From: Octopus vulgaris
Lineage: Eukaryota
NCBI GenBank assembly: GCA_951406725.2
Contig: OX597830.1
Span: 67,270,001-67,334,000 of the forward strand
DNA: 64,000 nucleotides
Reading direction: 5' to 3'
Below the pieces are notes generated by a model. The model made no database searches and was not told the origin of the DNA. It saw nothing but the letters and a program-made list of their open reading frames with translations. The position numbers and the translations under genes were made by a program. Shown here in pieces: positions 16,656 to 64,000 of the stretch. The number at the start of each line of letters is the position of its first letter. Position 1 is the stretch's first letter.

Positions 16656-16708
16656 ATTGGAAGACAAGAAAGACGAAGGCTGGCGGCAATGGCATCTTCT
16701 GCCAATGG
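16656..16708 (+). CDS. Putative host-gene micro-exon A (53 nt, phase 0->2): IGRQERRRLAAMASSAN(G)
   Basis: Acceptor ttgtattattctctAG and donor GTAAGT. The flanking intron sequence is homologous to that around the exons at 43779 and 54756. Reads in frame with the next exon at 25428. Confidence 0.65.
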
Positions 16709-18649
16709 GTAAGTAGAAGAACATTTCCACATTACATTTACTCATCATATTTAAAGACACCACTAAACCTCTAAATCTCTTCATATCTGATCCTTAGAGA
16801 ATTTTAAGTATTGCTTTTATCCTTTAGTATTTGAACAATTTCAACAATAATAAAAGAAAGAATAAACTATATTTACCCCACCATATTACTGGTATTTATA
16901 TAAAGGGAAAGCGATGTTATTGAGTATTTTCCATGATGGAAAAATGAAAGAGAATCGACAGTTAAGAAATGATATATGGCAAGTATTTAGTACAACAGTC
17001 TGTAAGTTCAGGTAACTTAGTCACCTTAGAAAAATTTAGAACATTAATAACCAAAATACGATTAATGTTTTACGAAGTCTCTACACCAAGTGGAAGAATT
17101 AATATAAAACATACGGATTTTATTAATTGGCAGTGAATTTCTACCTACAATGCTATTTAATATTACGTCATTTCAATGATATTTGACGTATTTTATTGTG
17201 ACAGAACGATGCAAGAATGCCTACATTTCTGTTATAAAATCTACCAATTCTTAATAAATTTATATGAAGCCTAATTTTCATAAATATACACATAATGTAG
17301 TACCTCCATGTAAGTGAAAAAACTTAGGTCTTTCCATAAAACAGTTAAAACTACTCTCCAATCTGTTATGCTATATAATAATTGCAACATCTTTTCTATT
17401 TGTATGCACATTTAATGCACATTTAATGGCCACCATAATAAATGGAATTTCAAAATGCATTTTTTGAGAAATCTTGATATGATATATCTTTTATCTTCTG
17501 CCTTTGACTTATTTCAGTCATAAGACTGTGGCCTTACTGGGGCACCGACTTGAGAAAGTTTTAGTCGAATAAATCGATGCCAGATCTTATTCTGTTTTTA
17601 AGCGTGGTATTTATGCTATCTGAAGGGTATTATTAATTAATATCCTAGAAACAGCTGTAAGACCTTCTATCTATAAATGCTCTAATATCTATGCAGCCTT
17701 GGTTTTTTATCTTATTACGCAAATAATTAATATATGATAGATCGTTAGCCACTACACACATTTTTCTCTCCTTGCTTTTTTCTGTGTCCCTTTCTGTAGA
17801 AGAACGTAGGCTCGAAACGTAAAAGACTTTTTCTATTCCTGAGCGTTATACTAATACATCTGTTTGTTTTGTACACCACCTCTCTTCGTCCTTTGTTTTT
17901 TTCGAAAACTCTCCCTATATATATATATGGATTTCGTAGACAGAAACTTGCAGAAATCAATCGTTTATATATGTATGTACATATGTAAGTGTATGTGTGT
18001 GACTTTGTTTCTGTGTTTCGCCCTCATCACTGCTTCACAACTGCTGTCCGTTTATTTACATCCCCATAACTTACTGGTTTCACAAGAAGAAACTAATAGA
18101 ATAAGTACCAGGCTTATCAACATAAAAAAGCACTAGGCTCTCTCATATTTTTGTTTGCCCACTCAGTTGTATCTATCAATTTATCTTTGTGTGTATATAC
18201 ACGTTGCCCGTGTTACATGTAATTGAAGAATTAGACTTTTCTGTTATATTTTCTGTAATGTTTCGAATTTCATCAAAATTGCAGATGAGGGTTATTTCCC
18301 TCTTTACACAATCTAAAAAAATTGTAATCGTACCACATGTATCCCATACTAATGATTTTTATGCGCACATTCCAAAATTCTTGTCTTATAGAACCTGTTA
18401 AAAGGATTTTGCTCCTGAAAAATGGAGGTCATGGAGCACTCTAAAATGTGAGAGTTAACGCCCCTATTGGTGGGGGGGTGTCTTAATGTCAAGCAGAGAA
18501 GTTGAATTGTTGAGAATCTTTTTAACTTGGGTCTTATATCTATTGCTTGAATTTCATTGAAATAGGAAATATATGTTCACTGGGTTTGTAAAATAGAGCA
18601 AAGCTACAGGAAACCAAAAGACGAATCATCACAATAAGCAGTCAGCTAC

Positions 18650-19077
18650 CAGTTTCTTCACAGCCCATTTCTGACTGAAACTAGCCACCCCACAAGTCAC
18701 GTCTCCCAGGTCTGTTCCACTTGGAGATTTGGATCAAACCAAATCGTGAGCAATTTAACCGGTACAGTCGTCCACTGCCCCATGATGCTGTTGGACGGCA
18801 TGGACCTGCTTCTCCAGGTACCCAGATGCAATCTCACCGACGTCTTCTGGTTAACTTTTGTTCCTGTCCCCGTCTCGCAGCTCCCCAGTGTAGTACCAAT
18901 CAGCTCCGACATTATTTCACTGACAATTACCCGCTTCTGCAATCATGAATCTTTCATGCCAGAGTTCTGACGGGATGCCCCCAACCCATTTAACCCCCAC
19001 ATTCAGAGGAAGTAACTCTTAGGACAGTACGTACAGAAGAGAAAGGGAAGAGAGGTGTCATCCTTGACGGTCGGAGT
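18650..19077 (-). repeat. Inverted near-identical copy of Tx1 internal segment 12728-13155
   Basis: 428-bp reverse-complement match with about 4 substitutions. The ORF-track peptides are identical or near-identical on opposite strands. Confidence 0.95.
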
Positions 19078-60852: not shown

Positions 60853-61390
60853 AAGTTCTCTATGTTATCGTCCTCTTTCTTATTACAGCGCGCTCTCGCT
60901 CTGGAAGAGACAGCTTTACATTTGACCCCTCCCTCTTAATCAAATTTCCACATTTCTTCATCAGTCCCGAGTCGGGAAAGAATACATTCTGCTTCAGTAC
61001 CCTCGGGTCAACACACGTTCGACCCTCTGTTCATTCAGTATAACTTTTCATTTTCTCAACGACTGACAACAACCAAACGAATGGTGGCTTTTCACAAAAA
61101 GGACCGCTGCAAAGCAGCACACAAAAGCACAACCATCCACGCCAAAACTTTCAGCAGAAATGAAACACGTACCAAAAAAGGAGAAATTACGAATGACTTT
61201 TATTTCGACCACAAGGACGAAACACAGAGGGACAATACAAAATGAAATGCGGGGTCTACGTAAGCGAATGGTATTTACGTAATGAATTTGAAAATTTTAC
61301 GGAAATATATCGAATGAGGGGACGAACAAAGCTAGGTACTGATGGAGTGGGGGAACGGTTATGACCCCGCAGAACGCGTTCCTCTACTGA
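60851..61390 (-). mobile_element. 5' part of an ORF1 element preceded by the family 3'-end motif
   Basis: The minus strand reads DSGLMKK..GSNVKLSLPERERAVIRKRTIT*RTF, aligning with DPEKMKR..ATNVKLIMSEEKKKMLRNSTILYRTF. The junction tgtccctctgtgttt..aaataaaa..ttcgtaatttctcc lies at about 61181-61235. Confidence 0.6.
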
Positions 61391-61619
61391 AACATTTTTT
61401 GTTAACCTTTTATGGACACACTCATGTAGGATCTTTCATTCCCAACACGCTTACCAATTGCTTCCATCTTTTCTCATACGCGTCCGATGTTCATAAAGTT
61501 GGTTTTTCTGTGTACACAACTAGAATATCCCATTTGATACTTATCAACCATAGACCGGAAACACAGTTAATCCAACCCTACCTGGTACATATATTTTCAA
61601 GTACCCGATTCTATGTGAA

Positions 61620-64000
61620 TCCTTATTTTCCCTTTGTCTTCATTTTCTCTTGGATTTTACTCTGTCTCCTGTATCTGAAAAAGATCTTTGCTTGAAACGT
61701 AAAACACCCTTTCTTTCCTTCCTTCTGTGAGCGTCTTATTAGCAATTTGCATGTACCATGTTGTTGTTTTTCTTAACTTTTTTGCCCGTTTTTTATTAAT
61801 TATATATATATATATATATATATATATACATACACATACGTACATACAGACACACACGCACACCCGCACTCATATATATATATATATATATGTATGTATG
61901 TATATGTATGTATGTATGTATATATATATATGTATGTATGCATGTATATATGTATGAGAATAGAATCATTTTTAAGGTATCAATTGCTTCTGTTAAGTTT
62001 AATTTCTCCACCTTTTCTGCCATTTTCAGCATATTTCTATTTTCCTCTTTGAAGAATTGCCTCTTTCTGAATTCTCTCTTAATTTCTTAGCTTCCTTTGA
62101 TCTTTGTTTATCTCTCAGCCTTCATCTCTAACTAAATCAATCTTTCTGTGCATAAGTTTTCACCTGCCATTTTATTCCTTAAGCCTGGGTTTCTTTTCCA
62201 TTGTCTCAATTTCTTTCCATGCAATAACACAACTTTTCTATTCAACGTTCACAGCTAAAGGATAAAGACTTAAATATTCATCTTTATACACATCATGACA
62301 ATTCATTTTACTAACCTGGAATTTTACAATCTATTGATTTTGCAGACCAGAACGTCAAGAAATGGCTCAGGTATCTGGTCAGAAACCCAAACAAGTAAGC
62401 TTTTATTTTAATCTTAAAATATTCTTGAATAGTTCTGAATTGGGATGAATCATTTCTTGAGAATTTCATCAAAGGATTTGCTTGAAATGAACGCTGTATA
62501 TTCTGTTTATGAATAATTTCATAAATTTTCTCACATTGATACGACTGGTTGCTATCATTTATACTGGTAGACCAAGCTATTATTCTCCAGACTGGTAGAG
62601 CTATCTGCAATTTTTGAAGAAGGTAGAACTCTATTTTATCTCTTTTTGGTAGATCCAGCTACTAAATTCTATATATTTACTGCAGGCTTCCATTTTGTTA
62701 TATTAGTACAGTTAGTGTAGTGGTTTTCATTTTAATATCACTGGGGACAATTTTTAATACTAGAAAAACCAGCTTCTATATATCATATAATTAGAGATGG
62801 AAAGAATCATTGTATCATATGTTAAACCAGTAGAACCAGTTTCTAATTTCCCCATATATATATATATATATATTCATGTATGAATGTATGTATGTATGTA
62901 TGTATGTATGTATGTATATGTATCTACCAATCTATCTATCTATCTATCTATCTATCTATCTATCTATCTATCTATCTATCTATCTATCTATCTATCTATC
63001 TATCTATCTATCTATACATATATATATATATATATATATATATATATATATATATATATATATATATAAAGATTTATATATGTATGAATGTATATATATA
63101 CATGTATGTATGTATATATATATATACATGTATGTATGTTTATATATACATGAAAACACAAACATAAAACACAACAACGCGAGGACGTGGAGCATGTAGT
63201 GTATTATTGGACGCCCAGGAAAGAAGGAGGGTTTAACGTTTCGAGCGGAGCTCTTCGTCAAAGCCATATGAAAAGGAAAGATCCAAAGAAGGGAAGACGG
63301 AGGGAAAAAAATCTCCAACGGTACATACGCGGTCATATATATATATATATATATATATATATATATATATGGTATAATAAACAGGGCAATGGTATAATAA
63401 ACAAGGGTTGATTTTCAACCCTTGTTGCGTTCTCATGAGAGATATCCACATCATTCTGACAGTGTCCAGAGAAACAAGCAGCCAAACCGATTCTATACTC
63501 AACAAATGCTGCAGTTATTCTATATAAGGATCTCTAATTTGCATACCGAAAGTATTTGACACTATAAGTACCAGTGGCCAGTCAGAGGGGAGGTATGTAT
63601 GTTCGTATGTATATATATATATATATATATATATATACATACATAATACACACAATCACATATGCACACAGATGTATATATATGTGTGTGTGTGTATGAG
63701 TGTGCGCGTGTGTGTGTTTCACCGATCACAGGACTTTCGGCTTCATGGAAGAGACTGAATGTTGATCTCAGAATCTTGGACAACATGCAGGAGATTACAT
63801 GGGATCAATATGATTGGCGATATGCACAACTGGATGCTTCACCCAGTTTCCCTCCTTTTCAAGACACTCACCACCACCCATAACCTACCTAACACCAGTT
63901 CTTCCATGCCACTCTTTTTCTACCCAGAATCATTTCACAATTTATCCACCCTTCATCCTTCATTACTGTTCTCTCCACCCATACTTTCAATCCTCGCCCC
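61620..64000 (+). repeat. Segmental duplication, copy 2 (contains exon F; runs off the window end)
   Basis: Colinear with 24620-27018. The last bases of the window equal 27001-27018. Confidence 0.93.
62346..62394 (+). CDS. Putative host-gene micro-exon F (49 nt, phase 2->0): PERQEMAQVSGQKPKQ
   Basis: Branch-point-like tactaac, acceptor ttgattttgcAG, donor GTAAGC. Four substitutions relative to exon B. Confidence 0.65.

Follow-up and report, generated by a model that had tools for sequence, protein, structure and literature searches.

What gene do six micro-exons of 41 to 56 nt, spread over tens of kilobases of octopus DNA, belong to? The question is raised by a stretch of 64,000 nucleotides from Octopus vulgaris (the window; assembly GCA_951406725.2, contig OX597830.1, here C17, positions 67,270,001 to 67,334,000 of the forward strand), for which a preliminary description had proposed a hidden host gene made of micro-exons that had been duplicated in pairs, each pair phase-symmetric, and whose protein it did not recognise. 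The exon pairs have held up, and the protein is recognisable: the host is a multi-copy gene of the TRPM family, already present in public annotation, derived from a TRPM-beta channel and consisting of an acidic micro-exon leader followed by tandem nine-exon MHR1-3 (SLOG) units that begin and end in phase 0. With a probability of about 0.7, we read the six exons as the acidic leader of an octopus TRPM-derived gene with a tandem leader-plus-MHR1-3 block, whose product, as predicted from sequence, is likely a Ca2+-dependent cation channel, each subunit carrying four to five intracellular sensor cassettes that have diversified. There are at least four, and likely five, tandem copies of the sensor domain instead of one. 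More unusual than the leader itself are these downstream SLOG units and an excess of amino-acid change.

The six micro-exons lie on the forward strand and alternate between two types. Those of type A run from phase 0 to phase 2: A1 at 16656..16708 (53 nt), which contains the start ATG of the public models P0006 and P0001, A2 at 43779..43834 (56 nt) and A3 at 54756..54796 (41 nt). Those of type B run from phase 2 to phase 0: B1 at 25428..25476 (49 nt), the acidic B2 at 48042..48087 (46 nt) and B3 at 62346..62394 (49 nt). Beyond B3 the intron occupies 62395..64000 (+), and the gene continues past the end of the window. All six have AG upstream and GTAA downstream, and as had been claimed they join into one open frame: frame 0 gives a 98-aa peptide without a stop while the other two frames contain stops, and 654 of 20000 joins of random window pieces of the same lengths were open in any frame. 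Within the window the A-type flanks are 64–80% and the B-type flanks 68–94% identical, and B3 is a recent duplicate of B1 (24615-27018 against 61618-64000, 73–91% in overlapping pieces). A protein search with the first SLOG exon matched Octopus models, including an O. vulgaris 'hypothetical protein' identical to the six segments letter for letter. The leader is acidic and Ser/Thr-rich and, to judge from this composition, would be disordered; a single-sequence AlphaFold model of P0006 (mean pLDDT 35) was uninformative and was not used. A homology search found no first coding exon for the window copy, and an unconfirmed motif candidate at 3941..3946 (+; ATG CAG with a phase-0 donor GTAAAT) has the same letters in the paralog at 79.7 Mb and is compatible with the MQ start of models P0005/P0009; the paralog at 43.0 Mb has a short phase-0 first coding exon.

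The phase pattern was examined across the family with profiles built from the flanks only, which recovered 104 exon copies in the fetched stretches, a part of the family rather than the whole. All 34 A exons are 2 mod 3 and open, as are all 20 exons of a third class, K, which are paralogs of the exon opening each SLOG unit. Of 50 B exons, 45 were 1 mod 3 when donors were called automatically and 49 once the GTAAG donor was chosen and one acceptor re-anchored, so that the rule is kept in 103 of 104 micro-exons. Since many copies are recent duplicates, we took distinct lengths as the fair test: all 19 distinct length changes preserve the class ((1/3)^19 = 9e-10), leaving out one frameshifted B exon. 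The pattern is well beyond chance. The same flanks matched the 2.8-Gb genome at 43 and 40 places (lower bounds), every one on C17 and with the frame class kept, unlike a genome-wide dispersed repeat or transposon.

The order of these exons also follows a grammar: an A or K exon and then a B exon, repeated, followed by K and a unit, each module and each unit being a phase-0/0 block. In fully sampled clusters the A-B or K-B alternation is strict. Within the leader any A exon can join any downstream B exon, as had been anticipated, all 20 compatible joins being in frame without a junction stop (21 possible paths), and in the gene models of an O. sinensis relative RefSeq isoform X4 skips 70 aa of modules in frame compared with X1. 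Tandem duplicated exons with homologous flanks, and the isoforms they may allow, are familiar from the mutually exclusive exon arrays of Dscam1 and from the clustered protocadherins. Unlike those systems, the octopus A and B exons alternate strictly and the diversified parts are cytosolic; nor does the leader consist of duplicates of one phase class used as alternatives, for A and B need each other to keep the frame and are thus serial modules. One public-model peptide, GYKEMDAGKHKIE, was rejected as a wrong-frame reading of a K exon.

Scanning the neighbouring sequence revealed a fourth module directly past the window, A4/B4 (C17 67356262-67362617, +), followed on the same strand by SLOG unit 1 (67393071-67430773), unit 2 (67435334-67471793), unit 3 (67473866-67510459), a further module A5/B5 (67516529-67525607) and unit 4 up to its exon e4 (67537536-67564467), after which an assembly gap begins at 67565374. 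This chain comprises 43 exons and 1487 codons with no stop and AG/GT at every boundary, amounting to 3.7 units up to the gap. Units 1–3 have nine exons each with the same phase string and phase 0 at both ends, and unit 4 agrees through e4. The chain relies on the annotation's upstream donor in unit-1 exon e2, which is 1 nt short at the donor used by its paralogs. It matches P0006 at 848 of 848 residues. P0006 is CAI9735597.1, a 'hypothetical predicted protein' that starts at the A1 ATG and comprises two LSDAT units in addition to the six exons, A4 and B4; CAI9735598.1 is the next part of the same gene. Annotation cuts the multi-unit gene apart at gaps and giant introns, which is why it has stayed hidden.

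The units are identified by their domains. P0006 matches PF18139 (MHR1/2, LSDAT/SLOG) at E 4e-113, and alignments to nvTRPM2 (90-449) and TRPM7 (84-432) span all of unit 1, placing MHR3 after MHR1/2. A genome search with PF18139 gave 81 matches, 75 of them on C17, including four plus-strand exon sets downstream of the window; an apparent 'stop' in one match at 67409498 proved intronic. Instead of one melastatin region per subunit, there are 3.7 units in the window copy, 4 in a copy near 79 Mb and 5 in joined O. bimaculoides models.

Some ten recent copies, 93–99% identical, lie on C17, with 3, 4 or 6 leader modules in the clusters sampled and a unit number that also varies. The copy at 79.27-79.70 Mb contains no gap, and all 77 protein matches in it fall on one strand, a few of them spurious matches to mis-predicted model segments. 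Its order is leader, a chimera of units 1 and 2, unit 3, A5/B5, unit 4, a linker of K/B micro-exons, unit 5, MHR4 and S1-S5, the fetched sequence stopping there. At 43.0 Mb, a compact paralog has exons of types A, B and K preceding the SLOG, MHR4, S1-S6 and TRP helix exons of a TRPM channel. Elsewhere on the chromosome, the leader modules at 69.12-69.21 Mb are inverted head-on, A1-B1 (+) facing a minus-strand cluster, and a minus-strand copy at 44.47-44.68 Mb combines six leader modules with three SLOG sets, the last of which lies only 24 kb before a partial S3-S4 exon match. A match at 36.35 Mb, considered as a distant paralog, was a 1.45-kb orphan (36346222-36347659), a 97.7% copy of the B5 region on an isolated contig between gaps. 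For the window copy itself, we infer that the gene reaches a channel part beyond the gap.

The architecture is also present in O. bimaculoides, at ~75% identity, and models with 3-4 consecutive units occur in three species. In O. bimaculoides the four-unit model (XP_052830016/17) reads through into an intron of unit 4 and ends there, whereas XP_052830018-21, which follow it in accession order, begin in unit 4 or its linker and extend through unit 5 and MHR4 to S1-S2. The O. sinensis model P0004 joins across the very intron where the four-unit model ends, and pieced together the models of the two species give five units. After four of 35 unit sequences, O. bimaculoides unit 4 among them, had been dropped as shorter than 250 aa, a tree of the remaining 31 placed the 20 tandem-unit rows in a single clade (100/99), with unit groups 1, 2 and 3 each drawn from three species and groups 4 and 5 each from two. 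Such orthology implies that the five-unit layout likely predates the O. bimaculoides split. The nearest relatives of the tandem clade are the genes at 42.9 and 43.0 Mb. Single-unit TRPM neighbours are 99.2–99.6% identical between O. vulgaris and O. sinensis and the tandem models 88–92%, orthology among copies being uncertain.

Amino-acid change among the paralogs exceeds what the surrounding introns show. Of 373 micro-exon sites 94 are variable, compared with 212 of 2104 flank sites (p 8e-14). In the modules 83 of 273 nonsynonymous and 7 of 84 synonymous sites vary, a ratio of nonsynonymous to synonymous polymorphism (pN/pS) of 3.7 (p 1.5e-4); in the unit exons the counts are 115 of 2275 and 13 of 611 (ratio 2.4, p 0.0016), and in both tests synonymous sites vary at the rate of the flanks. 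Taken singly, A1, A5, B1, B2 and B6 do not reach significance; A2, A3 and A6 give the strongest signal, and A2 is the most diversified class (26 nonsynonymous and 0 synonymous variants in 12 copies). Of 13 exonic indels 9 have a length divisible by 3, compared with 7 of 34 in the flanks (p 0.004). Exons e5-e7 of unit 4 were left out of the pN/pS counts; in the copies at 67.72-67.73, 68.02-68.03 and 79.41-79.42 Mb their protein is strongly divergent (about 58–67% identical to P0004 in two copies, 82–97% in the 79 Mb copy), although the surrounding DNA blocks are 96–98% identical.

Comparison with characterised channels separates what is conserved from what is not. MHR1/2 SLOG and MHR3 align to TRPM2/TRPM-beta of human, zebrafish and Nematostella (PDB 6mix, 6drj, 6co7) at E 1e-56 to 1e-52, and for the channel part, taken from the O. 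sinensis relative, the alignment reaches E 4e-133. The Ca2+ site is formed by E843, Q846, N869, D872 and E1073 (PMC6759353); equivalents of all five ligands align in the O. sinensis channel model P0013, and the same motifs are present in O. vulgaris genomic exons. Unlike TRPM2, the octopus gene has four to five tandem MHR1-3 units with a micro-exon leader and linkers, is multi-copy with a nonsynonymous excess, and shows an altered ADP-ribose (ADPR) pocket and a Gly to Ala change in the filter. The relatives scanned (P0008, P0016, P0018, P0020) have no NUDT9-H (PF25969), a domain present in chiton, Babylonia and amphioxus relatives. The N-terminal ADPR contacts of Nematostella TRPM2 are given as T143, T179, Y264, R271, T307 and R329 (PMC7201885); these are altered in a unit-specific manner, and no tandem unit keeps all six. 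By its sequence the gene would work like a TRPM-beta channel, but it departs from the one-melastatin-region, NUDT9-H and ADPR-pocket features.

Among octopus TRPMs with one unit (C17 42.9, 43.0 and 44.3 Mb; P0021, P0018, P0038), the 43.0 Mb gene shares the homologous flanks of its A, B and K exons before SLOG, but the pocket is better kept (T143, F264, R271, T307 and R329 in P0018 and P0020). We examined ten matches, mostly multi-stretch, among the best 150 from 1.84 billion representatives, and found one credible independent two-unit channel model: of RefSeq XP_072049890-892, XP_072049890 (P0189) has two MHR1-3 units and then MHR4 and the channel, although it is ~33% identical to the octopus query and has only two units. 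Tandem units therefore arose at least once more. A two-unit model from Sanderia malayensis differs in that MHR4 is repeated too, and sturgeon and oyster multi-LSDAT matches were rejected as fused annotations.

Published surveys describe the family differently. Section 27 of PMC13143021, which has one melastatin region per subunit, treats MHR1/2, MHR3 and MHR4 as a consistent set in all TRPM members and itself mentions no repeats; Table S1 of the same paper classes O. bimaculoides XP_052830018, a 3' model, as TRPM-beta. Table 1 of a 2026 cephalopod survey (PMC13402157) gives O. vulgaris one TRPM alpha and one beta, and the accessible part of that text makes no mention of SLOG, LSDAT, a cluster or truncated genes; PMC12919962 reports two TRPMs, and a preprint on molluscan TRPM hotspots ranks octopus lowest (bioRxiv 2024.05.23.594666), as far as the available portions of each go. 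On C17 we count 8 channel bodies or more, and the first exons of SLOG number 27. Our literature search, in which subscription journals were largely outside coverage, found no account of a tandem-unit family, and the supplements of PMC13402157 and of the hotspot preprint could list the genes. Public annotation already includes the exons; the searchable literature describes neither the architecture nor the amplification nor the signal of selection.

Several observations weigh against a multi-cassette channel. The window copy has no co-oriented channel exon before the gap, and the next contig carries a channel part on the opposite strand; as this copy and its neighbouring contigs are bounded by gaps, absence of the channel cannot be claimed. 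An earlier interpretation of that opposite-strand channel (67.565-67.695 Mb) as an inversion, and of the gene as channel-less, was dropped when the breakpoints coincided with assembly gaps. A search among proteins of 1506-4300 aa found no single database protein with all five units and the channel, which is weak evidence. Single-nucleotide indels, either assembly errors or decay, account for 4 of 13 exonic indel entries in the comparison of copies. The window copy has one (unit 1, e2), the 79 Mb copy three, and neighbouring copies have others. In the pocket, Ile takes the place of T143 in 23 of 24 tandem-unit rows, and only 2 of 24 have F264 together with R329 (O. bimaculoides unit 1 and a unit 1/2 chimera); positions 264 and 329 are the two contacts with a more than 1000-fold effect (PMC7201885). 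Many cassettes may therefore bind nothing, and the pockets may simply be dead. The assembly gaps cloud copy number, and the selection test counts variants among recent paralogs rather than applying a tree-based codon model, so that gene conversion in flanks or mis-assembly could bias it.

How the sensor units relate to the channel can be read in other ways. Were the multi-SLOG proteins soluble, they could serve TRPM channels as dominant-negative partners, or work as decoys or ligand buffers; eight models or model pairs (P0001, P0002/P0010, P0003, P0004, P0005, P0006, P0007 and P0009) indeed contain 2-4 LSDAT stretches and no Ion_trans domain, and on C17 the first exon of LSDAT is matched 27 times, the S3-S4 exon 8 times. 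We consider such a channel-less gene improbable: the inspected model ends are intron read-through or an internal K exon, the apparent breaks are the assembly gaps at 67565374, 67695403, 67803160, 68083022 and 68603507, no terminal exon was found, and the gap-free 79 Mb copy extends into the channel. Little likelier is a choice of cassettes by splicing, in which a single long locus would attach varying SLOG halves and micro-exon modules to an invariant channel part, leaving one or few cassettes per mRNA in the manner of clustered protocadherins. The shared exon phases of units 1-3 and the assembled part of unit 4 would permit this, and O. sinensis isoforms X1-X4 have a unit-1-type N-half and X5 a unit-5-type N-half on the same C-half and channel, X4 also skipping modules; these isoforms could, however, be chimeric models produced by paralog reads that mapped to the wrong copy, or reflect a fusion in the genome, the unit 1/2 chimeras of O. 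vulgaris are genomic deletions, and the runs of consecutive units in models of three species speak against a choice of single cassettes.

Least probable by some way is that the copies are decaying segmental duplicates or haplotype artefacts of the assembly, under relaxed constraint and with no functional multi-unit channel. The single-nucleotide exonic indels in several copies, the near-identity of copies flanked by gaps and the orphan fragment at 36.35 Mb would be expected in that case; relaxation, however, predicts a pN/pS near 1, whereas we found 2.4–3.7 with a synonymous rate equal to that of the flanks, the frame is intact in all but one micro-exon, and O. bimaculoides retains the architecture.

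We therefore retain the TRPM-derived channel with several cassettes per subunit as the preferred reading, and propose how it may evolve. Unequal crossing-over between homologous intron flanks would add, remove or fuse modules and units, and the frame would survive, since every A/K-B pair and every whole unit begins and ends in phase 0; the unit 1/2 chimeras fit such a process. Splicing may skip modules, the O. sinensis gene models X4 and X5 suggest that it adds variation, and selection would diversify what the cytosolic cassettes bind. The product would be a Ca2+-dependent channel bearing a row of cassettes re-tuned in the cytosolic part, with acidic spacers, the driver being an intracellular ligand or antagonist. 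TRPM N-termini are cytosolic, and because all diversifying parts tested are cytosolic in TRPM channels, we tentatively prefer intracellular surveillance, of nucleotide-type danger signals or microbial antagonists, to external chemosensation, at rather less than even odds.

The window contains other features. A Helitron with PIF1 and Helitron_like_N domains lies upstream of A1 (5300-10730, -); the stretch 4996-11252 is missing from the 79.7 Mb paralog, so that the element is likely a recent insertion. The B1-A2 intron holds two reverse-transcriptase (LINE-type) copies in opposite orientation, 70% alike (33106-34698, +, and 39129-41485, -). An intronic element recurs downstream of several B exons (window 28306-28467; C17 67334582, 67370900, 67812947 and 79682064) and appears as the start exon of the O. 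sinensis model P0004, probably an annotation artefact.

The family would offer a natural series of MHR1/2 pocket variants, a test bed for the evolution of ligand specificity and of gating and for the question whether distal cassettes can gate a pore. A more far-reaching idea, which we regard as possible but doubtful, is an octopus TRPM diversity system in which phase-matched SLOG cassettes and micro-exon linkers are recombined among the ~ten copies and spliced combinatorially onto a Ca2+-dependent channel, so that one tetramer could hold as many as twenty nucleotide-sensing pockets, each tuned differently and positively selected, and serve as an intracellular immune or danger sensor. Bacterial Thoeris defence is SLOG-gated, and if the idea were true the octopus family would be an animal counterpart of such SLOG-gated defence effectors. 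With this finding, the expansions known from cephalopods gain an ion-channel family that is recently amplified and under positive selection, and the faster change of its amino acids than of its introns suggests a fast-diversifying intracellular sensor.

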